Shown in pieces: positions 1 through 20,436 of a stretch of DNA of 64,000 nt. The notes beneath the pieces were generated by a model. It made no database searches. It had not been told where the DNA came from and saw only the letters and a list, made by a program, of their open reading frames with translations. The position numbers and the translations under genes are program-made. The stretch is from positions 1 to 64,000 of the IMG/VR virus record IMGVR_UViG_3300028591_000141, one strand, 5' to 3'. How positions within the stretch are numbered: position 1 is the first letter of the stretch; every line of letters begins with the position of its first letter. The stretch is from a virus. Lineage: Duplodnaviria > Caudoviricetes.

Positions 1-1098
1 CAGCACACCGGAAAGTCTTTCGGCAACACTGCTGAATATGCTTGCGTCTTTTGTCTGTTCTGAAATACCGCTGTCCTGGCTGCTAATTCCCCTTGCTTCC
101 TTAGCGACCTGAATAGCAGTTTTCATATTTCCGTAATTGAACTCTGCTTCTATTTTTCTGTTCGCTTCGTTTGCAAGTGCGGCTTCTTCTTTTTTTGCTT
201 CAAGAATAGCTTCAAACCTTTTCGCATATTCATCCGCTGCGTTTGTTGCATCTTTTGTCTTTGATGTTACCTGTCCAGTTTCTTCTATAATATCCTTGAT
301 GTCTTTCTTAATGCCTGTGTACGGGATAATGGCGTTTTTGCCTCCGGACATGGGGGTTGTGTTTCGTGCCATACCCTCCATCAGGTCATTTGTCTTTCCG
401 AGGTAGTCATTCAGGTTTCCAACTTCCGAACTCATGCCGGTCAGGTACTGGACCGGTTCGCCCAGTCTGGCATTCATCGTATCAACAGCGTCTGATACCG
501 TGCCTTCGACCTCAATGGCGCCTTCCTTCCATGCTGTCCATCCTTTTTCCACATCTGTGGAAACGCCCGTCTGGTCTCCGGCCGGCAGCGACATGGATGA
601 AATAATCCGGGAGTATGCTTCAAACATCTCCCTAAACTGCTCAATTCCTCCGCTCCACGCCTTGTTCTGCATCAGTGCCTGCGTATCGCGCAAAGAGGAA
701 TTCATCCCGTCGATGCCGCCTTTTGCTTCGAAAGTGCGGCTCTTAATGTCTTCGAAACCGGTATTGATTCCGGACATGTCCTGCATTGTTTCCCGCACAG
801 CGGACCGAATGCTTTCAATGCTTGTCCCGCCGCCGATGCGGATGTTCAGGTCACCCATGCCTTTCAGTTTGCTGAGTTCATCGGCAAGCTGTCCGAGCTT
901 TACAAGCGTGGAACCGCTCAGCTCGTTGTTGATGACGTCAGTCAGTTTTTTCAGGCTGGTGGCAACAGTGCCGAGTTTCAGTCCACCTGATACGGCATGT
1001 TTAATACGAACAAGCGCGTCATCGAGTCGTTCAAGGCCTGTTGCCGCACTTTCGGAATTATCCTTAATTGTTAATTGAAGTACTCCTACATCCGGCAT
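1..1098 (-). CDS. Tape measure protein, N-terminal part (runs off window)
   Basis: ATG at 1098 (MPDVGVLQLTIKDNSESAATGLERL...), directly downstream of tail chaperones; helical A/K/E-rich sequence. Confidence 0.8.
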   Translation of the reverse strand, partial: MPDVGVLQLTIKDNSESAATGLERLDDALVRIKHAVSGGLKLGTVATSLKKLTDVINNELSGSTLVKLGQLADELSKLKGMGDLNIRIGGGTSIESIRSAVRETMQDMSGINTGFEDIKSRTFEAKGGIDGMNSSLRDTQALMQNKAWSGGIEQFREMFEAYSRIISSMSLPAGDQTGVSTDVEKGWTAWKEGAIEVEGTVSDAVDTMNARLGEPVQYLTGMSSEVGNLNDYLGKTNDLMEGMARNTTPMSGGKNAIIPYTGIKKDIKDIIEETGQVTSKTKDATNAADEYAKRFEAILEAKKEEAALANEANRKIEAEFNYGNMKTAIQVAKEARGISSQDSGISEQTKDASIFSSVAERLSGVL

Positions 1099-1132
1099 AG
1101 TCTTTTCCTCCTCGATGACGCGCCCCGTATTT

Positions 1133-1615
1133 TTACTGCCCAGATCCCGCCTTTGCCTGCTGTTCCAGCCTGCGCTCGATGTTTTTGTTCATCTTCGCCG
1201 CCATTGCCTGGAACATTGCCATGGCCAGTTGGGACTGGTCTTCTTCGTGTTTCTTCCGAACCTCTTGCTCTTTCTCCGCTTCGTACTTCTCAAAGAACGG
1301 TTTGTCCGGATAATCCGGAAGTTCCGTTCCCTGTTTCACGTTCAGCCCGCCAACCAGAAGCGGTACGCATTGCAGCACTCTGATAATGTACTGGCCCATG
1401 TACCAGTTGTTCCGGTCAGCCATCCGCTGTTCGTTTTCCATCCGCATCCGGTATGCTTCGCGGTATGCCTTCTTCAGCCCGTATTCGCCGTCCCAGTATT
1501 GTTCCGGCGTCATGCCCATCAACAGATAGTGCGGAAAGAGCTGGTCAAATATATCTCCATACGGGGTAGAGCTCGCCTGCTTTGGCTTTTCGCCTTCCGT
1601 CAGACGGTCTCCCAC
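1133..1615 (-). CDS. Tail assembly chaperone, -1 frame (gpGT-like C-terminal part)
   Basis: Overlaps upstream chaperone in -1 frame; 'YLLMGMTPEQYWDG' motif; GGAAAAC slippery candidate at 1627-1633. Confidence 0.7.
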   Translation of the reverse strand: MGDRLTEGEKPKQASSTPYGDIFDQLFPHYLLMGMTPEQYWDGEYGLKKAYREAYRMRMENEQRMADRNNWYMGQYIIRVLQCVPLLVGGLNVKQGTELPDYPDKPFFEKYEAEKEQEVRKKHEEDQSQLAMAMFQAMAAKMNKNIERRLEQQAKAGSGQ

Positions 1616-2001
1616 GTAGGGTTCTCGTTTTCCTCTTCGCCTTCAGGTTCTGCCATCAGTTCCTCCAGCGGCTTCATGTACAGCTTGGTCAGAATGCCAA
1701 GCAGTTCGTCCTTCTTGGTCTGCTGTTTCCAGATTTCCTTGGCTTTGTCCGGGGACATGCCCTTGTGGTGCATCTGGAACGCGCCCAGGAACAGGTCTTC
1801 GATCATGGTATGAGGGAACTCGGTGTCCAGTTTGAATCCCCGGCGTTCCATGTTCTTGACAACGCGGGCGTTATACTCCAGCGTGTAGCTGTTGCCCTCT
1901 TTGTCCTTGATGATTACCTTGGAAAAATCTTTTTCAGTCGCAGCCATGGGCTTGCCTTCCTTTCTCGCCTGACTCGCAGGCACGCTTTTTTTGTTTGCCA
2001 T
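1600..2001 (-). CDS. Tail assembly chaperone (gpG-like)
   Basis: Position between tail tube and tape measure genes; 'YTLEYNARVVKNMERRGF'. Confidence 0.75.
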   Translation of the reverse strand: MANKKSVPASQARKEGKPMAATEKDFSKVIIKDKEGNSYTLEYNARVVKNMERRGFKLDTEFPHTMIEDLFLGAFQMHHKGMSPDKAKEIWKQQTKKDELLGILTKLYMKPLEELMAEPEGEEENENPTWETV

Positions 2002-2073
2002 GTGGGTTTCCTCCGTTGTTTTATAAGCAGGGGTTCGGGAGAGGGACCATTCCCTCTCCCTTCCCCGTACTCA

Positions 2074-2520
2074 TCAGGTGGAGCTGAACACAACGACCGT
2101 GCTGGGCGTTGCGTTGATGGTCATACCGACGGCCTCGTTCACGCCGCCGCCGCTGACGCCGGCAGAGAGTTCGCCGGTCCAGGTGAACTTACCCATGTGA
2201 CCGTCAGGAACCTCGTTGCCTGCGGTACCGCTGGCGCCAAACCAAACGGCGTACTCATACTGATGGCCTTCCAGCGCGACAATTGCCGCGTAGTTCTCCG
2301 GGGTGTAGTTTGCGCCGAACTGGAACTCGGACGTGTCGCCGATACCCTGGATGTAGACCCTCATGTAGTCAGACAGGCTCGTGATGTCGATCCGGTCCTT
2401 TGGGGGAATCAGGTCCGGGAAGGAAGTGATGTCGATGACCCTTGCAAAGGTTCCGCTCGTGGTGGAACGGTACATCAGGTAAGTCTGATACGTGGAAATA
2501 CCTTTCACTGCGCTGGGCAT
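2074..2520 (-). CDS. Major tail (tube) protein
   Basis: 'IDITSLSD...YIQGIGD' tube motif; synteny; downstream hairpin at ~2030-2066. Confidence 0.85.
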   Translation of the reverse strand: MPSAVKGISTYQTYLMYRSTTSGTFARVIDITSFPDLIPPKDRIDITSLSDYMRVYIQGIGDTSEFQFGANYTPENYAAIVALEGHQYEYAVWFGASGTAGNEVPDGHMGKFTWTGELSAGVSGGGVNEAVGMTINATPSTVVVFSST

Positions 2521-2552
2521 AATCTTGGTCTCCTTTCATATGGTTTTGAATG

Positions 2553-2602
2553 AAAAAACGCATGATGCGTGGGTAGAACCCAAACTCGCAATCATGCGTC
2601 TT
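2553..2602 (-). terminator. Intrinsic terminator/attenuator upstream of tail tube gene
   Basis: GACGCATGATTGCG...CGCATCATGCG followed by TTTTTT on minus strand. Confidence 0.7.
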
Positions 2603-2625
2603 TGCAGGTATTCAGTTCTTCGCCG

Positions 2626-3024
2626 TCAGGCTCTTCGGTAGATGTTCCCTTCCGGATCGATCTCCGCTTCATACCTGGCGGTATACCGGAACACTTTCGT
2701 GTTGTCGAAGTTGTTGATGTAATCTCCGCTGATCCGTGTGAAGTTCATCGCAATCATGGCGCCGTCCGCAGCGGCGTAAACCTCTTTGCACTTCGCCTTT
2801 GTCGTTGCGTACACGTCCAACTGGTACATAATCCTGGCCCTGTTTTCAACGGGCGTAGAACTTTGCGCCGCTTTCACGGTCGTATTACTCATCTCGACCA
2901 GGCTTGCCGCGGGAAACGCTGCAGGTGGATCCACAATGGCTGTGCTCACAAACTTTTTGTTTGCGCACAGGGAAGCGGCGGCATTGTATACCTGATTGAA
3001 GATTTTCACTTCAAAGTCAATCAT
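2626..3024 (-). CDS. Tail terminator / tail completion protein
   Basis: 'FPAASLVE...YQLDVYA...FRYTARY' pattern; synteny. Confidence 0.7.
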   Translation of the reverse strand: MIDFEVKIFNQVYNAAASLCANKKFVSTAIVDPPAAFPAASLVEMSNTTVKAAQSSTPVENRARIMYQLDVYATTKAKCKEVYAAADGAMIAMNFTRISGDYINNFDNTKVFRYTARYEAEIDPEGNIYRRA

Positions 3025-3593
3025 GCGCGCTCACCCCTTATATACTCAGCAATAATCCTTCCGCCTGACGCTTCCGCTTCCTCTTCAAGGTCACGAAGCG
3101 TATTGTACATGAAAGGCCTCGATGCCATTCCTTGTGTCCACGCAAGCTTTGTTCCGTCTTCTGCTTCTGTTGTTCCCCACGGTGCCGGGTACCACCATCC
3201 GTGCATACCATGTTTGTGAACATCGTATTTATATCCGGCTTTGTCAGCTTCAGGATGAGGGTGGTTTGCTCCGATGAATCCCGTACCATATTCTACGAAC
3301 ATGGCATAGCTTCCATATTCAGTAATCAACCCTTCTCCGGCCGTGATTTCGGCATAGTCGCCGATTTTCCTGTACAGAATAGAATTCTGTAAGTCTCCGG
3401 ACATATATGGCGGCCCGGGCATAAAAATCAGTTCAGCCTTCGCTACCTCAACGCCCTTTTCCGCAAGCCATGTGATCAGGCACTGCATTGCAGGCTGGAG
3501 CTTCTCCTTAAACCGGTTGACTTCTTGAATGGCTTTCCCAATAGATCGCTCGTCCAACGTCATCTCAATATTCTTAAGGATAAACTGGCCCAT
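3021..3593 (-). CDS. HK97 gp10-like neck/tail component
   Basis: 'SGDLQNSI...YAMFVEYGTG...GMASRPFM' motif. Confidence 0.8.
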   Translation of the reverse strand: MGQFILKNIEMTLDERSIGKAIQEVNRFKEKLQPAMQCLITWLAEKGVEVAKAELIFMPGPPYMSGDLQNSILYRKIGDYAEITAGEGLITEYGSYAMFVEYGTGFIGANHPHPEADKAGYKYDVHKHGMHGWWYPAPWGTTEAEDGTKLAWTQGMASRPFMYNTLRDLEEEAEASGGRIIAEYIRGERA

Positions 3594-3952
3594 CAGTCTC
3601 CACCTGCCGCATGATCTTTAGTCTGCTTTCGCAGTGCAATGCTCACTGCATTCAGGCTTGGGAGCACGGCACGGACTTCATACAGTTCACCTTTCCAGCG
3701 GATAAGTCCGTTTTCATGAATCCCAGGGTCCGGGTTATCCATCACCAGCACATGCGTATAGCGGATATCCTGTCCGTAAAAGGTTTGGTTTACCGTACCG
3801 CTTGGTGCGGAGATGTTCCCCTTCTTCTGCTCGGCGTTCCCGTATGAAGGCTGATACTGACCAGTATGCTCGTTATCTTCGGTCATTGCTTCGGTCATGC
3901 CTTCGTACGGCAGATACTCAAAGTCCGTCATGTTCCTTCTAAGGCACTTCAT
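3593..3952 (-). CDS. Head-closure (stopper) protein
   Basis: Size and synteny after connector gene. Confidence 0.6.
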   Translation of the reverse strand: MKCLRRNMTDFEYLPYEGMTEAMTEDNEHTGQYQPSYGNAEQKKGNISAPSGTVNQTFYGQDIRYTHVLVMDNPDPGIHENGLIRWKGELYEVRAVLPSLNAVSIALRKQTKDHAAGGD

Positions 3953-3964
3953 GGTTTCACCGCC

Positions 3965-4291
3965 TTACTGGATCACCTTGCAGTACGGAACGATTTCAGC
4001 AAGCATACCGTCCGGAATATCTGCCGAGCCGTAATTGCGGTGAATTCCGTTTTCGATGTGCTGGATCTGGCCTTCCGCGCCGATCTTGTTGATCATGTAA
4101 TTGGCAATTTTTAACTGAATAGCTACATACCTGTCCGGAACTTCCAGACCGTCGTAGTCATCCTTAAACGGATACATGCGGTTAAGTATCTTTTGTCCTG
4201 CAAGTTCAAGATAGACTTCAAGGATGCCGCGATCCGTTTCATCCTCACCCATCATGCGGCGAAGCATATCGACCTTTTTGTCAATGGTCAT
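3965..4291 (-). CDS. Head-tail connector (gp15/gp6-like)
   Basis: 'NKIGAEGQIQHIENGIHRNY' motif. Confidence 0.8.
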   Translation of the reverse strand: MTIDKKVDMLRRMMGEDETDRGILEVYLELAGQKILNRMYPFKDDYDGLEVPDRYVAIQLKIANYMINKIGAEGQIQHIENGIHRNYGSADIPDGMLAEIVPYCKVIQ

Positions 4292-4308
4292 CCTTTCCGT
4301 CCCCCTTC

Positions 4309-4539
4309 TTACTTGCTTGCCCTGCGCCGGGAGCTGCTTCTTGTGGGTACCGCTTTTGTTTCTGCCTTTGCTTCTCCCTTTTCAGGTTCATTCTCAGGCT
4401 TTTCATCAGCGGTTTTTTTCGCCGTCTCAAGCACGTCAACGGCTTCTCCAAGATCTGATTCGGTATCAAATACCTCGCCATGTTTGTGCCATCCGTTGCC
4501 GTCCTTCACATTCCACTTGGCTTTAACCAACATGGGCAT
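4309..4539 (-). CDS. Small head-associated hypothetical protein
   Basis: Follows capsid gene; acidic linker and basic C-terminus. Confidence 0.55.
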   Translation of the reverse strand: MPMLVKAKWNVKDGNGWHKHGEVFDTESDLGEAVDVLETAKKTADEKPENEPEKGEAKAETKAVPTRSSSRRRASK

Positions 4540-4598
4540 GTTCCCCTTTCAAAGGTCTTATTCCCGGCGGCAGTCAAACCGCCGCCGGGTAATCGGTC

Positions 4599-5672
4599 TT
4601 ACTTCACCTTAATCAGTGCGACCTGGTTCATCCGCTCATAGCTTGGCAGGACGATTTCGGATGCGAAGGTGTTCAGGTTGACCGGATGAGTATCCATAAT
4701 CTGGGTGATTGCAATGCCCTTGTTGACGATGGCCACGTCCGCCGCGTTGCTTCCCATCAGGTCAGCTTCCTCGGGCGTGGTGCCGCGCCAGGTCTTACCC
4801 AGCGTGCCGTTGGGCAGAACCGCAACGTAGTTGTCCGGCACGAATTTGTGCTCGACTCCGCTCTCATCAGCGTACAGCTTGTCGTAGACAACGATTCCGG
4901 CGAGGTTGAGGGAATCCTTCAGCACTGTGACGATCTGCGGGTCAGTCAGATATCCGACAGCCTGTCCGTTGAGGGTCAGGAACAGATCCTTGATCGCCTT
5001 GATGCTGCGGAACAGCTTGAACGTGGCGTTGTTCATGACGAGAATCTCGCCCTTTGCGCCCTGTTTTGTGATCGCGTCCTGCGCAGCGCGGATGTCAGTC
5101 AGAGGATCCGCTGCGTCGGGCTTGTCCCACGTATAATCGCTGGTAACCGGGAAGTAGTTCGCATTCTTCCAGGAACCATCCGGGTCATAGTTGTAGGTGT
5201 AGGAAACGCCGTTCGCCTCGATGGTGATGCCAACGTTGCCGTTTTCAGCGAACAGCAGCTGCATGATTTCGCGCTCCGCCACAACCAGGGCGCCCTCCAG
5301 CAGGTTGTTCGCGTCATCGAACACGCGGTTCAGCGCGTCGTTCATGTACGGATCGTTCTTTTCACGAATCCGCAGGATGCTCTGGCGGTCTTCTTCCTTG
5401 ATCTTGAAGCCTTCACGGAAGAAGGGCATCTGGGTCTCAAGCATTTTCATGCCGGGCCGGCTGCGGAAGGTTGCCTTCGCGTCGAAGGCGCTGGGCATCA
5501 GGGAAACAGGCAGGCCCTTGTTGCCCTTGATGAACTTCAGATCCAGGCCGGCCTTCTGGTCGGACGGGAAAAGGGTCTCGCCAAGATAGGGAATCTTGTT
5601 GCTCTGGGCTTCAGTCCAGTTGGCAGCGATAACCTTGGGGGTTACCTCCTTACGAAACTCAATCAGGTTCAT
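4599..5672 (-). CDS. Major capsid protein (lambda gpE-like family)
   Basis: 'YLGETLFP...KGNKGLPVSLMPSAFD...MPFFRE' motif; 357 aa; downstream hairpin 4563-4589. Confidence 0.9.
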   Translation of the reverse strand: MNLIEFRKEVTPKVIAANWTEAQSNKIPYLGETLFPSDQKAGLDLKFIKGNKGLPVSLMPSAFDAKATFRSRPGMKMLETQMPFFREGFKIKEEDRQSILRIREKNDPYMNDALNRVFDDANNLLEGALVVAEREIMQLLFAENGNVGITIEANGVSYTYNYDPDGSWKNANYFPVTSDYTWDKPDAADPLTDIRAAQDAITKQGAKGEILVMNNATFKLFRSIKAIKDLFLTLNGQAVGYLTDPQIVTVLKDSLNLAGIVVYDKLYADESGVEHKFVPDNYVAVLPNGTLGKTWRGTTPEEADLMGSNAADVAIVNKGIAITQIMDTHPVNLNTFASEIVLPSYERMNQVALIKVK

Positions 5673-5709
5673 AGGATTTTTCTCCTTTCATAGCTTTTGG
5701 TTTGTTGCG

Positions 5710-6354
5710 TCATACCGGCCACTGCACATGCCGGAGCAGGTGACCGCAGCCGACTCTCACGTCCCCGTAGATCGGTATGCCGGACGTCCGGCACAGGGCG
5801 CAGAAGTAGAGGTCTTCACTGAGCATCCCCCTGTTCGCGTCCCCATAGTTCACCCAGTCATACCAGGGGTATGAGAGCTTCCGGAATACTTCCGTCCGGA
5901 TAAGCGCGCATCCCATTCCGCCGCCGTGGATTTCAATCTTCCGTTCGCCGGCTTCCTGCATTTCGCGCATCTCTTCCGCCGTGTATTCCGATTCCAGCGG
6001 ATAGTGATAATACTCCTTGCCGTCCTTGTCCTTCAGCCTGCACAGGCACGTGCGCCCGTGATACAGGTTGTCGGATCCCCTGTGGGCGTAATACCCAAGG
6101 CAGACCTGTCTCGCGTCTTCAAGGAGCAACTTCAGTGCGTCCTTCGGCAGCGTGATGTCATTGTCCACCATCAGCACATAGTCCGTCTCAAGATCAATCG
6201 CTTTCTGGGCAATGTGGTTTCTCGCCGTCGCAACGTCATAGCCGCGGACCGACTCAAACAGCACCTCATGCCCGCACTTGTCCAGATCCCATATTGACTT
6301 ATATGTGTCCGGGTAAATCGTTTCAAAGGTAGGTACGGCAATGAGAATTCTCAT
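5710..6354 (-). CDS. GT-A fold (GT2-like) glycosyltransferase inside head operon
   Basis: 'ILIAVPT...ARN...DYVLMVDND...GMGCALI...SEDLYFC'. Confidence 0.8.
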   Translation of the reverse strand: MRILIAVPTFETIYPDTYKSIWDLDKCGHEVLFESVRGYDVATARNHIAQKAIDLETDYVLMVDNDITLPKDALKLLLEDARQVCLGYYAHRGSDNLYHGRTCLCRLKDKDGKEYYHYPLESEYTAEEMREMQEAGERKIEIHGGGMGCALIRTEVFRKLSYPWYDWVNYGDANRGMLSEDLYFCALCRTSGIPIYGDVRVGCGHLLRHVQWPV

Positions 6355-6368
6355 CTTCTATCCCCCGA

Positions 6369-6731
6369 TCAGGTTGCTCCGGTCGCGCCGGTAACACCCT
6401 GCACGCCGATGTTGGTCCGGAATACGATTCCGGGCAGCGCACTGTACAGCGCGGACACATAGGTCACTCCGCTGTGGGTCTGTGCCTTGGCAGCGTCGAT
6501 GATGCCCTGCACAACAGCCGCGCCGTTGGGATTCTCAGCAGTGTCCACGTCATACAGCAGAATGCCGATGGCGCCGGAACCAGTGGTGCTCTCTCCGCTG
6601 GCGTTCAGAGGCGTGCCCGCCTTCACGACCGTACCGCTTCCGGGGGTCGCAACCTTCACAGGAATGGCCTGGAAGTCCTTGCTGGCGAGGATCTCAACGC
6701 CGCCGCCAATCGTGGTCTCAGCATACTTCAT
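6369..6731 (-). CDS. Head decoration protein
   Basis: 'VVKAGTPL...AIGILLYDVD' motif; position between scaffold and capsid; Thr/Gly tail GVTGATGAT. Confidence 0.75.
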   Translation of the reverse strand: MKYAETTIGGGVEILASKDFQAIPVKVATPGSGTVVKAGTPLNASGESTTGSGAIGILLYDVDTAENPNGAAVVQGIIDAAKAQTHSGVTYVSALYSALPGIVFRTNIGVQGVTGATGAT

Positions 6732-6804
6732 GTCTTTTCTCTCCTTTCAAAAGAGTAAATATGTGTCCATCGGTTCAAGCCTTCAGGCTGAACCATCCAG
6801 CTTT

Positions 6805-7494
6805 TTACCGCATGTACCCCTTCAAACCGTCAACAACGGATTTCTCGCTTTCCGCGCGCCTTTTGCCCAGGTTCTTTGCGCGTTCAATTGCCGCTGCCTC
6901 TGCAGCGTCATCGCCGCCGTTCCCGCCGGATCCGGGTCCTGGAATCTTGCCAAACTCGATCCGCAGTGCCTTTTCTTTTGCAGTCCATGCCTGCTGGATC
7001 AGCAACAGCGCATTTTCGATGTTTTCACATCCGATCAGGCTTTCCGCAATCTTTCCGGCAGTATCCTCGTCCACGTTGAGTTTCCCCATCACAGACTTGG
7101 TGTTCTTGGCTTTCGCGACTTCCTTCCGGAGATCTTCCAGTTCCTTGGCCGCTTTTTCATCGGCTTCCTTCTTGTTGGCTGCGTCGATCTCTTCCTGGGT
7201 CATCTTTGCCTTCAGCTGCTTCTGCGCTTCGCCGAGCTGCCGCTTGTTGTCGGCCGCTTCGTGTGTGGCTTTGTCCAGCGCCGCTTTCATGCGGTCCATT
7301 TCAGCCTTCATCTGTTCCATCTGGGCGGCGGCGTTATCCCCGCCTTTATTCGGATCATCGCCACCGGCGCCGCCTTTGTTCGGATCGTCGCCGGCAGGAT
7401 CGTTTCCGCCTCCGGAAGGATTGTTTCCGTCTCCAGCAGGTTCAGCAAAAAACTGAAGTTTCATGGGTAAAATTCCGTTGCGCCATGTTTCCAT
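6805..7494 (-). CDS. Capsid scaffolding protein
   Basis: N-terminal 'KLQFFAE' Prp-type motif, G/D-rich linker, coiled coil; RBS AAAGGAGA. Confidence 0.85.
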   Translation of the reverse strand: METWRNGILPMKLQFFAEPAGDGNNPSGGGNDPAGDDPNKGGAGGDDPNKGGDNAAAQMEQMKAEMDRMKAALDKATHEAADNKRQLGEAQKQLKAKMTQEEIDAANKKEADEKAAKELEDLRKEVAKAKNTKSVMGKLNVDEDTAGKIAESLIGCENIENALLLIQQAWTAKEKALRIEFGKIPGPGSGGNGGDDAAEAAAIERAKNLGKRRAESEKSVVDGLKGYMR

Positions 7495-7520
7495 ATTTTG
7501 TTTCTCCTTTGCGTTTTATC

Positions 7521-7591
7521 GACTTCTCTGTCACTTCGTTTTGCGATTTACGTCTTCTCTGACGTTTTGCGATTTACGTCTTCTCTGACGT
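7521..7591 (-). repeat. 26-bp tandem repeat giving three AGAGAA-loop hairpins in scaffold leader
   Basis: TTTTGCGATTTACGTCTTCTCTGACG twice (7539-7590) plus a degenerate copy; stem ACGTC-AGAGAA-GACGT. Confidence 0.8.
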
Positions 7592-7657
7592 TTATTTCAA
7601 ACGGCATTCACCGTTTAAAACCTGATTCCGCGCTTTGGACGCATCAGCATCCATTTT

Positions 7658-8308
7658 TTAATCTTCCACGGATCGAAAGACCGGTCTCCAGAAGCATCTG
7701 CAATTCCAGTGCTTTGGCGGAATCTCATCGGTCCGGAAAATCTGCCCGTCATAGGCATGGCACTCTGTGCAAACTCTTTCGTCTCGCTGCGTGATCCACT
7801 CGATCATCTCTACCCCGGCATCCTCATATGCCTGCACCAGCGCGTAGTCCGTCATGTTAATTGCGTACTGTCCGAGTTGCCGGCTCCAATACCTCAGGGC
7901 TTTGTTAATTTCATAGTCCCTGTCCTGAGCCGCCTCCAGCGTTTCCGAAAGCCTGTAGGCCTTTCGCTCCGTCTCCGTGTCAAATCTGTACAGCGTTACA
8001 AAATCAGTTTCAGTAAGAACACGGTCGATCCAGTTATCGTCAATGGCCTTCCGTGCCTGTTTCTCTCCTTCCTCCCTGTCAAGCCCGCACAGGATCCATC
8101 CGTACATATATGCTTCGTACGCGACCTTTTTGTAACGTTTACGGGCGCGTTCAGCGCTCTTCCTGTAAACCGCCACAACAGTCCGGATGATGTTGACCTC
8201 GTCCCACTTTGCCATTTTCAGCCGACCAAACGCTTCCAGGTTCTCCCGGTTCATCGCTTTAATGGCTTTGTCGCACTCGGCGTAACAATTGACTGTCGTT
8301 TCCTCCAT
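7658..8308 (-). CDS. Minor head protein (SPP1 gp7 / Mu gpF-like)
   Basis: 'WITQRDERVCTECHAYDG...PPKHWNCRC'. Confidence 0.85.
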   Translation of the reverse strand: MEETTVNCYAECDKAIKAMNRENLEAFGRLKMAKWDEVNIIRTVVAVYRKSAERARKRYKKVAYEAYMYGWILCGLDREEGEKQARKAIDDNWIDRVLTETDFVTLYRFDTETERKAYRLSETLEAAQDRDYEINKALRYWSRQLGQYAINMTDYALVQAYEDAGVEMIEWITQRDERVCTECHAYDGQIFRTDEIPPKHWNCRCFWRPVFRSVED

Positions 8309-8311
8309 TTG

Positions 8312-10039
8312 TTACCCTCCGTACCTTGGAGTACTCCGCCTTCCCCGGTTCGCGCAGCTCAGGCTGTCATACACCTGGTTGGCTTCCTTCTTGATGAACT
8401 TCCGTCCGCACACCGGGCACTGCGCCCACTGGCCTTTCTTGCTCTCACGGGATGAACCGCCGGCGCCTTCATCGCCTTCTGCCTGCGCCTTAATTCCTTC
8501 AGCGCTCGTCGGGTCCGTTGTGTCGTCTTCCTTCAGCGGGATCCCGTCCTCGCCGACCCCGTTCATCCGGTCCAGCTCTTTCGCAAGCATCTCCTGGTAA
8601 TCGTCGTACATGATGGCGTCGCTTTCCGGATCACGGCTCAGATGGCTGAACTTAAACGCCTGTACAGCAGGCATTCCGGCACTGCGAAGCGTTGCAAAAC
8701 TCTGAGTCTTTACAAGCAGGTCCTCGTAACTCTGCCTCCAGAACCGCGGCTCAAGGTCGGAAATTTTCAGCCCTGTCAGTACGTTCTGCTGGTTACAGAT
8801 CTTCAGCACAACCTTCAGGAACTCTGTCTCTGCCTTCTTCCACATGTTCTGTGTCTGAAGCGCCCGGCCTTCTGCATGCCACCATCCGTTACGCATAATG
8901 ACAGCGCCGTTATTGCTGCTGTCTCCGTTGCTCGCGTCACCCTGCGAAGGCATGCCGACAATCTCCAGCACAGTCCTCTTCATATCGTTTACAAGGGTCT
9001 GTGTCTGGCTCTGGTCCAGTTGCTCGTTCAGGTAATACAGTTTCTTTCCGCCGTTTGTGCCGTTCTGCGTCGGAGGAAGCTGAATTGCGCCAAGATCTTT
9101 CAGCTTCAACAGGTCCTCACGGGTAATGTCCACGCCGTCGAAGACCATCAGCGCCTGAATAAACTGCTCAATACCGTCCAGCCGGTTGCTCTGCGTCAGG
9201 TTAATCGCGTCCAGAAGCGGAAGAACCACTTCAAACGCGCCCATATAGTCCGGGTTGCACGGATACTCAATCAGACTGACCATGCCAAAGTTGTGCGTGA
9301 CAGTCTTGCTTTTGTTAATCTGAAGTTTCCCGGCGATTTCCTCAATCGTGTACGTCACGTTTTTCGTATAAACCGTGTATTCCGGGTCGCTGTGCGGCAG
9401 CGTCTTGTACACATAAGTTACGCCGGCAACAACCGTCTTTTTCGCGTCGTTATGGCGGATTACAAACGTGTTTTCAACGTCCGGAACAGCAATCTCAAAC
9501 GGCGCCTCATCCAGGAATTCATCGTTATTCCCGATATCATGCCATACAAGCCTGTATGCAACGCCGCATGTAAACATCTTGTGAGCCAGCTCAAGGTCAA
9601 GCGTCTGCTTTCCCTCTGAAATCATCATGTCGTTGACCCTGGAAACCTTCTCTGGAATGTCACGTCTGCTGTCGTCCACACCCTTGTTCCCACGCCTGCT
9701 GACGTACTGGATCGGCTCTCCGGCAAACTCTGATTCCTTAAACGTGATAATCTCGTTCGCCAGGTTCTCAACAACCTTGTTGTTGATCTCATCGTTGTAC
9801 TTCTTTGTCCGCTCCAATACAGGCTGTATTCCACGTTCGTACTTCTGGAGATAAATAATCTCTGCGCGATTCTTGTTGTGGACGGTCAACGCTTTCTGCA
9901 ACACGTCAACCACATTGTCCATGGTAATTTCGCTCTCGCTCGTGAATATCTGCCTGCGTCCGTGCAGCCCAGTGGAGTAATCCGGATCAATCCGGCCGTC
10001 TGTCACCGTCGTGTCATAAGCCTCAAGACTTTTACGCAT
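8312..10039 (-). CDS. Portal protein, SPP1 gp6-like, with C-terminal extension
   Basis: 'NNKVVENLANEI...GEPIQY', 'FEVVLPLLDAINLTQSNRLD'; start taken at MRKSLE after GGAGGGAGG. Confidence 0.9.
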   Translation of the reverse strand: MRKSLEAYDTTVTDGRIDPDYSTGLHGRRQIFTSESEITMDNVVDVLQKALTVHNKNRAEIIYLQKYERGIQPVLERTKKYNDEINNKVVENLANEIITFKESEFAGEPIQYVSRRGNKGVDDSRRDIPEKVSRVNDMMISEGKQTLDLELAHKMFTCGVAYRLVWHDIGNNDEFLDEAPFEIAVPDVENTFVIRHNDAKKTVVAGVTYVYKTLPHSDPEYTVYTKNVTYTIEEIAGKLQINKSKTVTHNFGMVSLIEYPCNPDYMGAFEVVLPLLDAINLTQSNRLDGIEQFIQALMVFDGVDITREDLLKLKDLGAIQLPPTQNGTNGGKKLYYLNEQLDQSQTQTLVNDMKRTVLEIVGMPSQGDASNGDSSNNGAVIMRNGWWHAEGRALQTQNMWKKAETEFLKVVLKICNQQNVLTGLKISDLEPRFWRQSYEDLLVKTQSFATLRSAGMPAVQAFKFSHLSRDPESDAIMYDDYQEMLAKELDRMNGVGEDGIPLKEDDTTDPTSAEGIKAQAEGDEGAGGSSRESKKGQWAQCPVCGRKFIKKEANQVYDSLSCANRGRRSTPRYGG

Positions 10040-10069
10040 CCGGATCCTCCCTCCCTCACTTATGTACAG

Positions 10070-10113
10070 AAAAAGACGCTGAACCAACGAGTTTCCTCGC
10101 CATTCAGCGTCTT
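10070..10113 (-). terminator. Terminator/attenuator between late promoter and portal gene
   Basis: AAGACGCTGAA...TTCAGCGTC followed by TTTTT. Confidence 0.75.
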
Positions 10114-10185
10114 CCTGCTACCCTGCCACGTCACTAACCGACCTGATTGGTCAATTAATAAAGCAGAATAGTATCTTGCAGTTTG

Positions 10186-10214
10186 ATTATATCCAATATA
10201 TTGTGCCCTGTCAA
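10186..10214 (-). promoter_or_regulatory. Consensus SigA promoter upstream of portal
   Basis: TTGACA-17 bp-TATAAT on minus strand. Confidence 0.8.
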
Positions 10215-10262
10215 TACTTTTACGAATGTTTTCCCTATTATGTGTAGTATTCGTTCGGAAAA

Positions 10263-11897
10263 TTAAAATAACCGCTCAAATACGCGAACCTGCCCCTGTC
10301 CGAACGTCTGCACATAGTCCGCCAGCATCGCCAGACTATCCGGTCCGTCATCGTGCTTTGCCTTCCCGTTCATTGTCCAGCTGCATACATTGTTCAGGAA
10401 CGTCCTGTATTCCTTGTCTTTGACCACGCTCTGGTCCTTAAATAGGAAATGTTCCTTCACAAACGGGCTTGCCATAATGATCTTCGTCTCTTTTTGCTGC
10501 GTCGTGTACTTTGTAGTCAGTTTCGTCCGCCCGCCGCGCCGCTTTACTTCTTCCTGCACGCTCTGCGCAACCCTGCCGCCTGCACTGTTCGACTCAAACC
10601 GCCCCATATGCACGTTGTGCTGAAGCAGTTTCGTCACGATCTCCGCTTCCACGTTCTCCGGGTTCGCGTTATTGAACACCACGTCCTCAATGTAGTAATC
10701 CTGGCCGTACTGATACGCAATCGGCATGGAGCAGTAGTCGATGCCCCGGTCCTTCGTATCGCACACGCACAGGATCGCGTCCGGTTCCCGGTCCGGAAGC
10801 TCAAAGTACCTCCGCAGCTCATCCGGATGATACAGCAGGCCTTCCCGCTCAATCGGCTGGTTCATGTACAGCGCCCTCCAGTTCGCGTCATCCATAATCC
10901 CACGCTGCTCAATGTAGAACGCCGTGCTGAATCCCACCCCATACAGGTAGTCAAAGTTGCTCTCGTCATTTTCATTCAGCGCCGGAATCGCAATAAACTC
11001 CGCCCTGTCGCTTCCTTCGTACTGCCGCTCCAGTCTGCCCAGAATATCATTGACGCTCCACCGGGTGGCTATGTGCAGTTCCTTGCAGTGATCCCCGATC
11101 TTCCGCTGCCGCAGGTCCGTCGTATACATATCCCACAGTTTGTCAAGCTGTTCCTTGCTCAAAGCGACCTCCAGTCCCTTGATCAGGTCGTCGCAGTACA
11201 ACAGCTGCCCCGCCCGGTACAGACCGGCGTTACCGGATCCGATTGACGTAAACTCCAGCGTCTCAAACCTCTTCGGTTTCCCCAGGTCAATCCGCAGGCT
11301 CTTCGCGTTTGTGTTTGATACGACCGTTTCCGGAAACACGTCATGCCACAGATATTCCCCGTGACCGTCAAAGATCCGCAGGCACTCGTCATATACACCG
11401 CGCACAAACTCATTATTGTGGCTTCCGGTGAGGTTCGGCTCTTCCGGCCACCTTCCGGCTACCCACGTCAGCAAAAATATTGCCAGCGTACTCTTGCCAA
11501 CGCCAGGGGGAAGGCTGATGCCCAATATGTCCAGAAGGTTGTCCATCAGCTTCTGTATGCTGTTTACAACCCGAAGCAGCTGTCTCCTCCTTGGAAGGTA
11601 GAACCGTTTTCTCGGCGCGCGGTTTCGCTCAATGTACTGACAGTACGCGTCAAACATCACCCGCGAATCAATCAGCAGGCTCTTGTAATACGTGTCTTCC
11701 AGGCTCTCCGCAATCCTCACCGTCGCACAGCCGCGCATGGATTTTGCGATAACCTTTCGCATCTGTGCATTGATGTCATGCCAGCCGGTCTCCCCTGCCT
11801 GCGTATGATCGTAAATTATCGAAAGAGCATCCCTGAACACAACCGGGTCGTCCGGATGCGCGTCAATGTATCGCTGAATCTTCTCAATCTCCGTCAT
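10263..11897 (-). CDS. terL: Terminase large subunit
   Basis: Walker A 'SLPPGVGKS', 'LYCDDLIK', nuclease 'KHDDGPDSL'. Confidence 0.92.
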   Translation of the reverse strand: MTEIEKIQRYIDAHPDDPVVFRDALSIIYDHTQAGETGWHDINAQMRKVIAKSMRGCATVRIAESLEDTYYKSLLIDSRVMFDAYCQYIERNRAPRKRFYLPRRRQLLRVVNSIQKLMDNLLDILGISLPPGVGKSTLAIFLLTWVAGRWPEEPNLTGSHNNEFVRGVYDECLRIFDGHGEYLWHDVFPETVVSNTNAKSLRIDLGKPKRFETLEFTSIGSGNAGLYRAGQLLYCDDLIKGLEVALSKEQLDKLWDMYTTDLRQRKIGDHCKELHIATRWSVNDILGRLERQYEGSDRAEFIAIPALNENDESNFDYLYGVGFSTAFYIEQRGIMDDANWRALYMNQPIEREGLLYHPDELRRYFELPDREPDAILCVCDTKDRGIDYCSMPIAYQYGQDYYIEDVVFNNANPENVEAEIVTKLLQHNVHMGRFESNSAGGRVAQSVQEEVKRRGGRTKLTTKYTTQQKETKIIMASPFVKEHFLFKDQSVVKDKEYRTFLNNVCSWTMNGKAKHDDGPDSLAMLADYVQTFGQGQVRVFERLF

Positions 11898-12261
11898 CGT
11901 TCTCCTCCAGCATTTTCAGCATAACCCGCTCCGCTTCGGACGTGACCTTCGCAAGCCTCGGAAGCTGCCTCGCAACCCAGTCAACCATCGTCTCGTCATG
12001 CCCCATTTCAGGATGCCCCCAGTCGTCTCCAAGCCCGCACTCAAACAGCATCGCGTGTACAATCTCATGCCGCAGCACATGCGCCATAAACTCTTCCGGC
12101 CTTTTCAGGTTCCCTATCTTCCGCCCGTCATAAATGACAATGGAACGCTCCGTCCAGTCCGTAAACCCGCTGCACTCCGCAAGCCTCTTCTCGTCAGTCT
12201 CCTCCTGGATCCTTACTTCCCATTCCGCACCCATGATCTCAATGCTGAAATGCTTCATCAT
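11884..12261 (-). CDS. Phage HExxH metallopeptidase-like protein
   Basis: 'VLRHEIVHAMLFECG'. Confidence 0.6.
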   Translation of the reverse strand: MMKHFSIEIMGAEWEVRIQEETDEKRLAECSGFTDWTERSIVIYDGRKIGNLKRPEEFMAHVLRHEIVHAMLFECGLGDDWGHPEMGHDETMVDWVARQLPRLAKVTSEAERVMLKMLEENDDGD

Positions 12262-12273
12262 ATTCCTCCAAAT

Positions 12274-12320
12274 AAAAACGGGAACAAGCCTCTCGGCTCA
12301 TTCCCGCAATTCTGCGTCTT
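12274..12320 (-). terminator. Terminator/attenuator upstream of terL unit
   Basis: GCGGGAATGAGCC-GAGA-GGCTTGTTCCCGT followed by TTTT; preceded by AAGACGC motif. Confidence 0.7.
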
Positions 12321-12344
12321 ATCGTTTCTTATCCGTGTTTGTCC

Positions 12345-12842
12345 TTACGTCCCAAGCTTCGTCCGGTTTATCCGTCCGCACTTCGGGCAGCTGTACTCTA
12401 TTGCCGCGCCCATCTCCGTCTGCACCCTCCTCCCACGGGCATATACAAACCGCCCGCAGTAGTGGCACACCCTCGACGGTGCCTTGCTGATGGTAGCCTC
12501 ACCGCTCTCCAGCTCTTCCTTGAACCGCTCGCGCTTGCGACGGGCGTCCCGCAGGTCCCGGCTCTTCAGTTCCCGCTCCATCGAATACCGCCCCGGCCTC
12601 GGATTCATTCGCTCAAAGTTCCGCTTCCGTGCGTTCCGTTTCCACTCCGGTGAGTCCGGCCCGCCGTCCGCCCAGTAGTTCAGCCGGTTAATGTGCGCCA
12701 TGGAATCGTGCCGTTCACCGGCGCCCATCAGCAACAAAACAACACAGATCACCGCCGCCAGTCCGGCCGCGCCCCATTGCCCGTTGTCCGCGCACGCAGA
12801 TATCACGACAACAGCTATGATAATAATCATCACGGCAATCAT
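12345..12842 (-). CDS. Membrane protein with C-terminal zinc ribbon
   Basis: Two hydrophobic N-terminal segments; CHYC...CPKC. Confidence 0.6.
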   Translation of the reverse strand: MIAVMIIIIAVVVISACADNGQWGAAGLAAVICVVLLLMGAGERHDSMAHINRLNYWADGGPDSPEWKRNARKRNFERMNPRPGRYSMERELKSRDLRDARRKRERFKEELESGEATISKAPSRVCHYCGRFVYARGRRVQTEMGAAIEYSCPKCGRINRTKLGT

Positions 12843-12894
12843 ATATCATCTGTCACCGCCTTTTTTATTTTTCCGGGATTTTTGAAAACACCTT

Positions 12895-13158
12895 TTATTC
12901 CTTCACCGCGTTCTTCTTCGACCGGGGTGCCTTCCCAACAACAAACTTCATCGGTTCCCCTACACCCTCGTCCCGCATAATCACGCTGTACCCTGGCGCG
13001 TTCTTCGAGATGTTCCACTGCACTACGTTCCCTTCCAGCACTTCACACTGCGTATCGATCTCCTTCAGCGCGTCCTGCAACACACCAAGCACAACATCAA
13101 CCTTCAGACCGTCCTTGATCTCAATGAATACGTTCGGATTCTTCGCCATGATGCCCAC
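12895..13158 (-). CDS. Hypothetical protein
   Basis: ORF coupled to upstream HTH gene; RBS AAGGAG. Confidence 0.55.
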   Translation of the reverse strand: MGIMAKNPNVFIEIKDGLKVDVVLGVLQDALKEIDTQCEVLEGNVVQWNISKNAPGYSVIMRDEGVGEPMKFVVGKAPRSKKNAVKE

Positions 13159-15931: not shown

Positions 15932-16183
15932 ATGGGAAGAAAGTACACTGGCCTTTTTGAGGATGAAGTGGCGGAGCTGCTCCGCTCCGCCGCTCCGGGT
16001 GCCGTGATTGTTTCCGGTCCGTTTTCCTGGAGCATGGCGCACACGCTCGCGGAGGACGGCATATATACAAGCGGTGCCGGTTATGTGACCGAATATATAA
16101 ACGGGATCCGCTCCGGTATCCGCTCCGCCGCTTCTCTTGTTTTCCGCCTTGCGCATACTGATTTTGAAATTATGGAGGTATAA
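15932..16183 (+). CDS. Hypothetical protein (island)
   Basis: RBS GGAGGT before ATG 15932. Confidence 0.6.
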   Translation: MGRKYTGLFEDEVAELLRSAAPGAVIVSGPFSWSMAHTLAEDGIYTSGAGYVTEYINGIRSGIRSAASLVFRLAHTDFEIMEV

Positions 16184-16187
16184 AGCA

Positions 16188-16934
16188 ATGTATAATTCCG
16201 CTCCGTATACCACGCCCGGCGGCCGCGTTTACCGCCTGTATACGCACCTTGCCGACCGTCCGCACCTGCTCATTGCAGGCGCCACCGGTTCCGGTAAAAG
16301 CGTGACTATAAACGGCATTATATACGCGCTACTGGCCACCCGTGCCCCGTCCGAATGCGGTTTTATCCTGCTGGACCCGAAAAAGGTGGAGCTTGTCCAG
16401 TACGCACGCCTGCCGCACGTCGTCCGCTATGCGTCGGAACCGTCCGACATGATCGACGCGCTAGAATATGCCGTCCTGGAAACGGAGCGCCGCTTTTCAG
16501 AAATGCAGCGCGCCGGCGTCCGGGAATATTCCGGCCCGGACCTGTACGTGATCGTCGACGAGCTCGCCGACCTCATGGTAACACAAAAGAACGTCGCCCT
16601 GCCTCCGCTCCAGCGCCTGGCACAGATCGGCCGCGCCGCTCATGTGCACGTGATCGCCTGCACGCAAAACGTTATGGCCGTAACAATCCCGACCGTCCTG
16701 AAATGCAATTTTCCGGCCGTTCTAGGCCTGCGTACGGCCACGGCGGCACAATCCCGCTACCTGATCGCTGCACCGGGCTGTGAGACCCTTCCAGACCCGA
16801 AAAAGACCGGTAAAGGCTGCGGGTACCTCCGCGACGGTGCTGACCTGGACCGTTATGAACTCTACATGTACCCTGAAGAAGAAATCACCCGCATGATTAA
16901 TTACTGGACCGCCGGCGCCCGCCGTGCCAGCTGA
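16188..16934 (+). CDS. Stand-alone FtsK/SpoIIIE-family ATPase domain
   Basis: 'HLLIAGATGSGKS', 'LLDPK', 'YVIVDELADL', 'QIGRAAHVHVIACTQ'; no TM or gamma domain. Confidence 0.88.
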   Translation: MYNSAPYTTPGGRVYRLYTHLADRPHLLIAGATGSGKSVTINGIIYALLATRAPSECGFILLDPKKVELVQYARLPHVVRYASEPSDMIDALEYAVLETERRFSEMQRAGVREYSGPDLYVIVDELADLMVTQKNVALPPLQRLAQIGRAAHVHVIACTQNVMAVTIPTVLKCNFPAVLGLRTATAAQSRYLIAAPGCETLPDPKKTGKGCGYLRDGADLDRYELYMYPEEEITRMINYWTAGARRAS

Positions 16935-18025: not shown

Positions 18026-18580
18026 TCACTCGTCCTCGTCCGGGATCGCTTCCTCCAAACGCTTGCGTGCCTGTTCCGCATCCAGTCCCTGCATCGGATT
18101 GTTCGGTGTGACCACCACGTCCGTCTGGTCCTTGTAAGCATGGTTGTTTTTGAGCAAAAATATTGCCGCGACCGGATTGATTTTTCCGTCAGCCATAGTC
18201 TGAGTCAATAGCTGGTTCATTATGCTATAGGCTTTTTTTATAGCGTAACGAGACCGCTCTGGTATATTTCCACATTCCACATTGTTTGACCACCGCCACA
18301 ACTGCATTCTATTCGTATTAAAAGCAAGAGCCAACGACTCAACGGTAGGCTTCATATCGTGTTTAATCATATATTTAAGGGTCTTATTAATTCGTTCTTC
18401 AACAGCATCAGGATCGTTAATATCAACTGGCCCAAAGCTTGACAAACTCACAGCGTCCGTAATCATACGAGCCATATCTCCAGGTTCGTACTGTGGTAAG
18501 TATTCTTCGCTTCGTTTTGGCCGTTTGTGTTTCTGTTTTGACACGATATCAACAACTTTATTTTCCGTGTCCTTATCCAT
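18026..18580 (-). CDS. terS: Terminase small subunit (P22 gp3-like)
   Basis: 'PTVESLALAF..NRMQLWRW' HTH; 'AAIFLLKNNHAYKD'. Confidence 0.8.
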   Translation of the reverse strand: MDKDTENKVVDIVSKQKHKRPKRSEEYLPQYEPGDMARMITDAVSLSSFGPVDINDPDAVEERINKTLKYMIKHDMKPTVESLALAFNTNRMQLWRWSNNVECGNIPERSRYAIKKAYSIMNQLLTQTMADGKINPVAAIFLLKNNHAYKDQTDVVVTPNNPMQGLDAEQARKRLEEAIPDEDE

Positions 18581-19304
18581 TCCGGTTAGCCTCCTTCCAT
18601 GCCATATACTTTTTATATTCCTGCTCTGTGTACAGGTGTGTTGCGGGACAATGTGAGTCTACCCACAGTTCGAACCCGTGTACGGCAGCCCGAACGCAGA
18701 AGTGACGATCCTCTCCGTAGAGTGCTCGCTGAATGTTCGGGATGTGTGTGTAGTCAACGCCGGATTCGAGCACTTTGCGTTTAACGAGTGTGCATGCGCC
18801 GGTCATTCCGCACTGGTAGAGTCCCGGGTTATGCCATTCATTGAGCATACCGGATCCCTGGTCGAACATCCATGCGTTGCACCATGTGTGGATATCTTTT
18901 GATGTAGACCAGAATATTTCCGACACGATGTCCTTGTCTGCGTCGAGCAGGAAGCGGAGCGTGTCCTGGTGCAGCACGAGGTCAGTGTCCACGGAGAACC
19001 AGTAGTCATACCCGTGATCGAGTGCGTGCTGGATGGTCATGTTCCGGAGCGCTTCCATTGCGCGCATGTTTGAGTCGGACCAGATATGGTCGTTATGGGT
19101 TTTACTGTATGCTTCGCCCGTATTGTGAACGATATATTTGTCAGATTCGCGCAGGCATGGGATCAATTCAGGACAGTCATTGATGACGTAAAACGTGTCG
19201 AGTGTGAATCCATCCGGGACGATCAGTCTGTCAATTGAGTCACGGTATTCATTGAATATTTTTGGTTCCTGCCGTGCGGGAGCGGTAATAAGTATTTTTT
19301 TCAT
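18573..19304 (-). CDS. GT-A fold glycosyltransferase
   Basis: 'LRN...DYWFSVDTD...GACTLV...GEDRHFC'. Confidence 0.8.
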   Translation of the reverse strand: MKKILITAPARQEPKIFNEYRDSIDRLIVPDGFTLDTFYVINDCPELIPCLRESDKYIVHNTGEAYSKTHNDHIWSDSNMRAMEALRNMTIQHALDHGYDYWFSVDTDLVLHQDTLRFLLDADKDIVSEIFWSTSKDIHTWCNAWMFDQGSGMLNEWHNPGLYQCGMTGACTLVKRKVLESGVDYTHIPNIQRALYGEDRHFCVRAAVHGFELWVDSHCPATHLYTEQEYKKYMAWKEANRNG

Positions 19305-20258: not shown

Positions 20259-20436
20259 TCACATCACCTCCGTTGTGAGATTTAAGGATATTTACTGCCT
20301 CGTCAAGTTCGCGGATACGTGCGGCCGCCTCACGCACTGTGCGGATACGGTCCTTTGAAAGCATACCGCCCGCTTCCGCCATGATGTCAAGGCGACGCAG
20401 GAGTTCAGGCGTCTTCATTGGCACGATGTTGTTCAT
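20245..20436 (-). CDS. Hypothetical protein
   Basis: Translationally coupled ORF; 'VREAAARIREL'. Confidence 0.55.
   Translation of the reverse strand: MNNIVPMKTPELLRRLDIMAEAGGMLSKDRIRTVREAAARIRELDEAVNILKSHNGGDVNEEH

Follow-up and report, generated by a model that had tools for sequence, protein, structure and literature searches.

Three intrinsic terminators in the late region of the sheep-gut phage IMGVR_UViG_3300028591_000141 (whole record 98.8 kb) each begin with a copy of the same short motif, AAGACGC-N6-GCGRG. The stretch analysed here, referred to as the window, comprises positions 1 to 64,000 of that record. We consider it an even call that this motif serves as the common handle of an antitermination regulon, phage-specific and acting site by site, most likely read as a mini-hairpin in the nascent RNA, with the product of the gene at 19914-20258 (P0001) as the likely factor; all three components, namely regulated read-through, RNA as the recognised form and P0001 as the factor, are what we infer. 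The motif copies and the terminators to which they belong are as follows.

12303 to 12320, minus strand: motif copy A, AAGACGC-AGAATT-GCGGG, 3' of a small membrane-protein gene and 5' of a 125-aa gene and terL
12268 to 12307, minus strand: intrinsic terminator A, stem GCGGGAA...TTCCCG plus an apical hairpin, then a U-tract; its basal 5' arm is the GCGGG of the motif
10096 to 10113, minus strand: motif copy B, AAGACGC-TGAATG-GCGAG, the entire 5' arm of the pre-portal terminator
10066 to 10113, minus strand: intrinsic terminator B, AAGACGCTGAA / TTCAGCGTCTT plus an inner stem GCGAG/CTCGT, then a U-tract
2585 to 2602, minus strand: motif copy C, AAGACGC-ATGATT-GCGAG, 5' arm of the pre-tail-tube terminator
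2553 to 2602, minus strand: intrinsic terminator C, ACGCATGAT / ATCATGCGT plus GCG/CGC and an inner hairpin, then a U-tract

The exact pattern, AAGACGCNNNNNNGCGRG, matches three times in the window, always on the minus strand, where 0.05 matches are expected, and none of 100 shuffles gave three copies. Relaxing the motif to two mismatches brought no gain above chance in the window, and no copy beyond the three was found elsewhere in the whole record. The hairpins A, B and C, each followed by its U-tract, fold with -26 to -31 kcal/mol and z values of -4.8 to -6.5, they are the only sense-strand intrinsic terminators predicted in positions 1-13000 by a fold-based scan, and the distance from motif to U-tract is alike at all sites (39-44 nt). 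A preliminary description of this DNA had proposed these three sites, as well as the overlap of each with the 5' strand of a terminator; the coordinates are right, and each copy indeed forms the 5' edge of an intrinsic terminator. The late region is of siphovirus type and read on the minus strand, with the following genes.

11884 to 12261, minus strand: 125-aa gene (phrog_1233), first gene 3' of terminator A
10263 to 11897, minus strand: terL, after the 125-aa gene
8312 to 10039, minus strand: portal gene, first gene 3' of terminator B
4599 to 5672, minus strand: major head protein gene of the siphovirus late region
2626 to 3024, minus strand: tail terminator gene of the siphovirus late region
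2074 to 2520, minus strand: major tail (tube) gene, first gene 3' of terminator C

A megablast comparison of the late region with GenBank phages gave no match, and a search of the whole window against Rfam at gathering thresholds returned nothing relevant. Relatives were sought in IMG/VR, where terL led to 49 loci and P0001 to further genomes, the hosts being uncultured rumen Clostridiales. The core of the motif, AGACGC-N5-7-GCGRG, recurs at these three positions in some 20 Clostridiales phages related to this one, amounting to 53 distinct terminator-linked instances (20 of class A, before terL; 20 of class B, before the portal gene; 13 of class C, before the tail tube gene). Among the alternatives allowed by the search pattern, motif position 1 is A in 52 of the 53 instances and position 3 is A in 50, and one-base variants of the motif (AGGCGC, TGACGC) occur in class B. 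The 14 nt 5' of the motif hold almost no information (0.04-0.58 bit per position), so that 11 identical positions are retained, next to uninformative flanks, at three otherwise unlike terminators across deep divergence. The preliminary description would have given up its proposal for a motif absent from relatives, and what is found is conservation at all three positions between randomised flanks.

The sites also persist where neighbouring modules differ. In G006 and G008 terL is of another type (38% identity), yet the motif-bearing terminators are kept, the packaging gene having been swapped with the regulatory sites untouched; G012 has a different tail module and keeps them as well. The portal proteins of G006 and G008 (L086, L087) are 64-76% identical to that of the window, and all three motif-bearing terminators are the same there. 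A fourth copy, of the class B type, is found in G008 (L092:1029-1045; G008:71528), where it separates a TATAAT promoter from a holin-like gene (phrog_297). This fourth terminator adjoins a tyrosine integrase gene, and a small sigma-4-like open reading frame (ORF) lies downstream.

Within the terminators themselves, class A shows 13 pairs, four of them with compensatory changes, and many G-U pairs; class B has compensatory changes too, including AGGCGC pairing with GUGCCU, and class C is nearly invariant throughout. Since G-U pairs occur throughout the terminators, the constraint acts on the sense RNA. Class A is the most telling in another respect: its AGACGC lies outside the terminator stem yet is invariant in all 20 instances, and the motif is therefore selected for something besides termination itself.

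A few further observations concern the surroundings and the reach of the motif. The heptamer ACTGAAT lies 7-10 nt 5' of AGACGC at seven of the 13 class C sites (e.g. window 2616-2610), with near variants at several more; a few class A sites have it before the motif too, two of them in exact form, and in many class B motifs CTGAAT makes up junction and loop. AGACGCTACGYGGCGAG occurs at L085:1278-1294 and L091:1193-1209 (G006:10777, G007:12192), within a conserved stretch of the early region and with no U-tract after it; the hairpins 3' of this site show compensatory changes between G006 and G007 and match neither a tRNA nor Rfam. No shared terminator motif was evident within reach of L130 and L131, which carry distant members of the P0001 family (40% and 31% identity), and a relaxed pattern gave only background-level matches in G021.

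The form in which the motif may be recognised is suggested by its anatomy. The 17-nt element can be written AGA-CGCN-loop-N'GCG-RG, a 4-bp stem with a loop of 3-5 nt, a 5' AGA and a 3' RG. The spacer measures 6 nt in 48 instances, 7 nt in four and 5 nt in one (n=53), and its first and last bases, which make up the fourth stem pair, are complementary in 49 of the 53 (A:T in 32, T:A in nine, C:G in three, T:G in five), the other four being T:T. The identity of this pair differs even within one genome, with complementarity kept. The variable loop, the kept complementarity and the T:G wobble moderately favour, as far as comparative sequence data go, a hairpin of the sense RNA over a rigid duplex-DNA site. 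In the minimum-energy folds of sites B and C, mini-hairpin and terminator are mutually exclusive: four segments can be drawn, the terminator pairing 1 with 4 and 2 with 3, and the mini-hairpin 1 with 2. The competing CGC-N6-GCG hairpin of the preliminary description is thus recovered at B and C; at A the two structures coexist and overlap at the base only, the 3' GCG and RG of the class A mini-hairpin being the first bases of the basal stem CGGGAA/UUCCCG. The pairs adjoining the U-tract are the critical ones in intrinsic terminators. The motif was also considered as the -35 part of a late promoter and rejected, as no class has a conserved -10 at 17 bp and the stretch is a covarying hairpin.

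If a phage protein acts on these sites, which gene encodes it? Two adjacent ORFs have to be introduced here.

19914 to 20258, minus strand: P0001, 114 aa, five helices, predicted sigma-region-4/Q21-like fold, upstream of a terS-like gene
20245 to 20436, minus strand: P0003, a 63-aa Arg-rich helical ORF overlapping the start of P0001

All ORFs of the window were profiled against seven complete or near-complete motif-bearing genomes and six terL relatives that lack it. Of all real ORFs, P0001 alone occurs in each of the seven motif-bearing genomes (52-84% identity) and goes undetected by tblastn in all six motif-less ones, and it is conserved more strongly than terL. The preliminary description had named this gene as a possible factor; its phylogenetic profile proves the best of any ORF, and from there its role as the factor is our inference. 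The gene lies after a primase/helicase gene (21597-23498) and before the terS-like gene (18026-18580), and in G012 it directly adjoins terS. In the window, P0001 and its 63-aa neighbour lie among three glycosyltransferase-like genes (18573-21071, minus strand), and the order glycosyltransferase, small ORF, P0001, glycosyltransferase is conserved in most relatives.

P0001 has no match in Pfam, PHROG or NCBIfam. It belongs to an uncharacterised phage family that comprises 212 clusters at 90% identity in its tight form and 65 representatives at 50% identity in its wider one; three of 42 representatives match Sigma70_r4 weakly (best E 4.6e-4), and five of 42 match sigma70-ECF, also weakly (best E 2e-4). 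The AlphaFold model has five helices and is confident, with a predicted local distance difference test (pLDDT) score of 90.5. Its top match by VIA-align is Q21 (6jnx_P, Z 6.7, root-mean-square deviation 3.4, 94 residues, model 4-106), in a Z range that is common for helical proteins, followed by many sigma region 4 domains (Z 5-6.6, model residues ~30-106); Foldseek returned weak sigma-4 rows only. By language-model features the nearest named cluster is ArpU/DUF1492, and the predicted homodimer scored 0.40 (mark 0.42). The nearest outgroup, G005, carries a family member that is only 18% identical, in the same position (L126:1028-1378; hhalign probability 98.6%), and its pre-portal and pre-tube terminators keep CGC-N6-GCG, with UUG or UAA in place of AGA (flanks ATTGCGC, ATAACGC). 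This hints that protein and site may co-vary, and G005 may be a specificity variant.

Other candidates were examined and set aside. P0003 occurs in six of the seven motif genomes, being absent from G011, and is unlisted just upstream of P0001 in five of 24 loci; it appears to be a frequent but dispensable companion of P0001, and its absence from several motif-bearing phages excludes it as an essential factor. The gene upstream of site A (12345-12842, minus strand) was discarded because its product is a small membrane protein, marked by a YWADGGPD motif common to relatives, and because its C-terminal CxxC...CxxC zinc ribbon is an extension found in the window copy only. An FtsK-like ATPase (16137-16934) accompanies the motif, but G005 has it as well, and it was likewise discarded.

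The pre-portal site has an additional layer, shown by two features.

10186 to 10214, minus strand: consensus sigma-A-type promoter, TTGACA-17-TATAAT (12/12), between terL and the portal gene, 5' of terminator B
10066 to 10179, minus strand: structured leader or short RNA of ~115 nt, from the promoter to terminator B

The preliminary description had already placed copy B between a consensus promoter and the portal gene, and the promoter was confirmed as a 12/12 match at 10214-10186. In every relative the pre-portal unit opens with a near-consensus promoter and its leader; the motif-bearing terminator comes next, ahead of the ribosome-binding site and portal gene, and promoter and terminator B stand within ~110 nt of each other. 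The leader contains a long-range helix, P1, of 10 bp (10171-10162 with 10127-10118), directly 5' of the motif; across 16 relatives five of its 10 pairs show compensatory changes, values that 0 of 500 shuffles reach. Earlier ideas of the leader as a local 4-bp hairpin or as a sigma-dependent pause element are superseded by this better-supported helix, and a search of the pre-portal unit against Rfam with E up to 10 gave no relevant match. Without read-through the promoter unit would yield an RNA of ~115 nt, reminiscent, by analogy, of lambda pR'-tR'; such an RNA could also be a small RNA in its own right. Why should a strong promoter that serves the portal gene, or the holin-like gene in one relative, be closed by a strong terminator? 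The arrangement argues for conditional release, since a holin gene driven by a strong promoter has to be gated conditionally.

Several palindromes are found around the pre-portal promoter: an operator-like inverted repeat, ACGAAT...ATTCGT, just 5' of the -35 (window 10220-10255, minus strand), a perfect TTACGAATATTCGTAA palindrome 5' of the -35 in several relatives (e.g. L004, L001), and a CACAA...TTGTG palindrome inside the promoter spacer of many relatives. Their positions suggest that a second control, at the DNA level, may operate here.

On the regulon reading, RNA polymerase would stop at each late terminator as long as the factor is missing, and polymerase from the pre-portal promoter would make nothing but the ~115-nt structured RNA. 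In the late phase a phage protein would recognise the element, most likely as the nascent mini-hairpin and before the 3' arm of the terminator exists, and, once bound, would keep the 5' arm (B, C) or the basal stem (A) from its partner, so that the terminator would not form. At sites B and C, a protein stabilising the pairing of segments 1 and 2 would abolish the terminator, and at site A a protein covering GCGRG would remove the pairs adjoining the U-tract. The terL, portal/head and tail units, together with the holin-like gene in one relative, would thereby open together, the best candidate protein being P0001 with its predicted sigma-region-4/Q21-like fold. This reading accounts for the separate motif copy on every terminator, for the retention of AGACGC at site A, and for the pairs of promoter and terminator.

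Several points weigh against the regulon reading. The CGC/GCG stem never varies, so that most of the mini-hairpin is without covariation, and the fourth pair is not significant within class B alone (p 0.19). At site A the mini-hairpin sits beside the terminator with ~2 nt of overlap with the basal stem, and folding alone gives no exclusion. The profile of seven versus six genomes is largely one clade against its outgroups, and the searches for homologs, by tblastn and with an A1 profile, overlook divergent members such as that of G005. The predicted fold of P0001 would moreover be typical of DNA- or polymerase-binding proteins (Q21, GafZ, Ltr activators), and not of known RNA-binding antiterminators. 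This last point is the starting point of an alternative that we hold to be unlikely, in which the regulon is the same and the motif is read as duplex DNA by P0001, in a Q- or GafZ-like manner, behind a polymerase paused on the U-tract 25-45 bp downstream; P0001 would contact the flap and RNA-exit region and block hairpin completion, locally or as a travelling subunit, and the overlap with the 5' arm would be a matter of geometry. The match of the P0001 model to Q21 and sigma region 4 and the weak Sigma70_r4/ECF matches of the family suit this alternative, as do the sigma-region-4-related fold of Q21, which binds a DNA element behind paused polymerase, the precedent of GafZ, a sigma-like helix-turn-helix antiterminator with a DNA site, the short palindrome formed by CGC-N6-GCG, whose halves are about one helical turn apart, and the similar distance from motif to U-tract at all sites. 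It is at odds, on the other hand, with a spacer varying from 5 to 7, with the asymmetric flanks (AGA versus RG), and with a fourth pair that stays complementary, including T:G, as its identity changes inside one genome, which fits base pairing and not base reading. Sites A and C also lack a promoter or free 5' end close by from which Q-type threading could start; the P0001 gene, unlike Q genes, does not adjoin the regulated promoter; and the residues of P0001 that we take, from a by-eye alignment, to stand at the -35-contact positions of sigma-70 region 4.2 are K/V/W/M, which we counted against it. Recognition of duplex DNA fits the protein fold better, and the variable spacer and wobble pair worse, than recognition of RNA.

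It is also conceivable, and in our estimate quite unlikely, that no dedicated factor exists: the motif would be terminator or transcript architecture that tunes constitutive partial termination, or marks processing or stability sites, to set the ratios of packaging, head and tail proteins; its three copies would owe their persistence to common descent and to selection for efficient termination, and P0001 would be an ordinary Ltr-type activator acting elsewhere. At sites B and C the motif is after all simply the 5' arm, with AGA pairing with the U-tract, class C is nearly invariant as a whole, and P0001, whose nearest named cluster is ArpU/DUF1492, has the classical Ltr position upstream of terS. 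Two sheep-gut metatranscriptome contigs bridge terminator C, which is also in keeping with constitutive read-through; they represent joined RNA or contaminating DNA, and as low-depth metatranscriptomes they are uninformative on regulation, with no usable cover over 7744-12399 from which expression could be ranked. This explanation is contradicted mainly by site A, where AGACGC is invariant outside the stem, and by the promoter-terminator-holin arrangement, a promoter ~110 nt before a strong terminator ahead of a portal or holin-like gene making little sense without conditional release; the 11 positions shared by three dissimilar terminators between uninformative flanks speak against it as well. 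Very improbable, finally, is an active role of the ~115-nt pre-portal RNA itself, in cis as a put- or EAR-like element or in trans as a small RNA, with the other sites linked by RNA-RNA or RNA-polymerase contacts. The five compensatory pairs of P1, the conserved promoter and terminator, and a 3' arm, GCGUCUU, that is complementary to AAGACGC would agree with such a role; it fails because sites A and C are without a leader, and in addition the complementary segment is locked in its own terminator stem, site A lies upstream of the promoter and beyond the reach of a cis-acting RNA, and the leader has no Rfam relative.

For phages that infect Gram-positive bacteria, what is known of late-gene control mainly concerns promoter activators of the Ltr type, and antitermination switches are textbook cases for lambdoid phages only. 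The regulon reading offers a compact and testable alternative, with a 17-nt element, three to four terminators and one 114-aa candidate whose family is widespread in rumen and gut phages. If true, it would provide a new antiterminator family, a portable and orthogonal terminator/antiterminator pair for synthetic biology in Firmicutes, and a sequence signature for late-gene boundaries in uncultured Clostridiales phages.

How does the locus compare with systems already described? The preliminary description called it RAT-like, which holds for the geometry, as an analogy only; the proteins and RNAs scanned included neither a CAT/PRD or ANTAR protein nor an RNA of RAT type. As in the RAT/CAT (BglG/SacY/LicT) and ANTAR (EutV, AmiR) systems, a short hairpin in the RNA shares bases with the 5' arm of a terminator, the same element recurs on several terminators of one regulon, and protein binding would favour the small hairpin, giving passive, site-by-site antitermination; tested for RAT-type geometry, hairpin and terminator are exclusive at B and C and overlap by ~2 nt at A. 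The element, however, is a 12-nt hairpin (4-bp stem, 3-5-nt loop, AGA/RG flanks) with a sequence other than that of the ~29-nt RAT, and there is a single hairpin per site, unlike the two tandem hexaloop hairpins of ANTAR targets, the second of which overlaps the terminator. A Pfam and PHROG scan of P0001, of its family and of part of the phage's other ORFs gave no match to CAT/PRD domains, and no ANTAR domain was matched among the candidates scanned; the candidate here is predicted to be sigma-region-4-like, and the setting is a phage late switch and not sugar or nitrogen control.

The fold of Q21 has been described as related to sigma region 4 (10.1101/651190). With Q21 (PDB 6JNX), its best structural match, and GafZ of Caulobacter, P0001 may share the character of a small protein of this kind. 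With lambdoid Q systems the locus has in common a strong promoter with a terminator within ~100 nt before late genes, a short terminated RNA like lambda 6S, and terminators that gate late structural genes. Q and GafZ load once, at a promoter DNA element, and act processively on any terminator, whereas here every terminator has its motif copy, which argues against processive Q-type action, and two of the three have no nearby promoter. The P0001 gene lies 7.6-10 kb from the regulated sites, unlike a Q gene, which is directly upstream of the late promoter; P0001 has no sequence similarity to the Q families in Pfam, and no conserved element that might serve as a Q-binding element was found between the -10 and the leader helix, a -10-like GATACT in the leader lying inside the RNA helix. 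With lambda N and nut the locus shares a small nascent-RNA hairpin, which here would be recognised to overcome terminators, as well as a boxA-like YGCUUUCUUUG in the pre-portal leader and an Arg-rich 63-aa ORF next to the candidate gene. The nut element, however, is promoter-proximal and processive over distant terminators, while the present element abuts each of them; the boxA-like tract is found at one of three sites, and the Arg-rich ORF is missing from several motif-bearing phages.

The late regulators of the Ltr group are encoded upstream of terS (PMC3753634), which is also the position of P0001. Proteins of this group (RinA, ArpU, LtrA/Sigma70_r4, LtrB/DUF1492, LtrC) resemble P0001 in their size of ~100-140 aa, in a sigma-region-4-like C-terminal part, predicted in the case of P0001, in being encoded after the replication genes and before terS, as P0001 is, and in the expected control of packaging, morphogenesis and lysis genes, although every member of the P0001 family falls below the Pfam and NCBIfam thresholds set for the Ltr families. 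Ltr proteins bind three 7-nt direct repeats 5' of one terS promoter and activate initiation, in contrast to a hairpin-forming motif on three terminators with no -10 after it, and no paper was found on terminator-linked motifs or antitermination for Ltr-type proteins. A bolder proposal, which we regard as rather doubtful, is that a protein of sigma-region-4 fold reads a nascent mini-hairpin at each late terminator and so represents an antiterminator of a new class, directed by RNA and specific to its sites; a single Q- or N-type processive modification would then give way to several gated units with a self-terminated consensus promoter, a new logic for a late switch. On this proposal, at least 65 family clusters (50% identity) would carry matching protein-motif specificities, that of G005 being one variant. 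The locus has the defining features of none of the RAT/CAT, ANTAR, Q21/GafZ, Ltr and lambda N families, and we see the balance as level on whether it represents protein-dependent antitermination in which element, candidate protein family and setting are all new.

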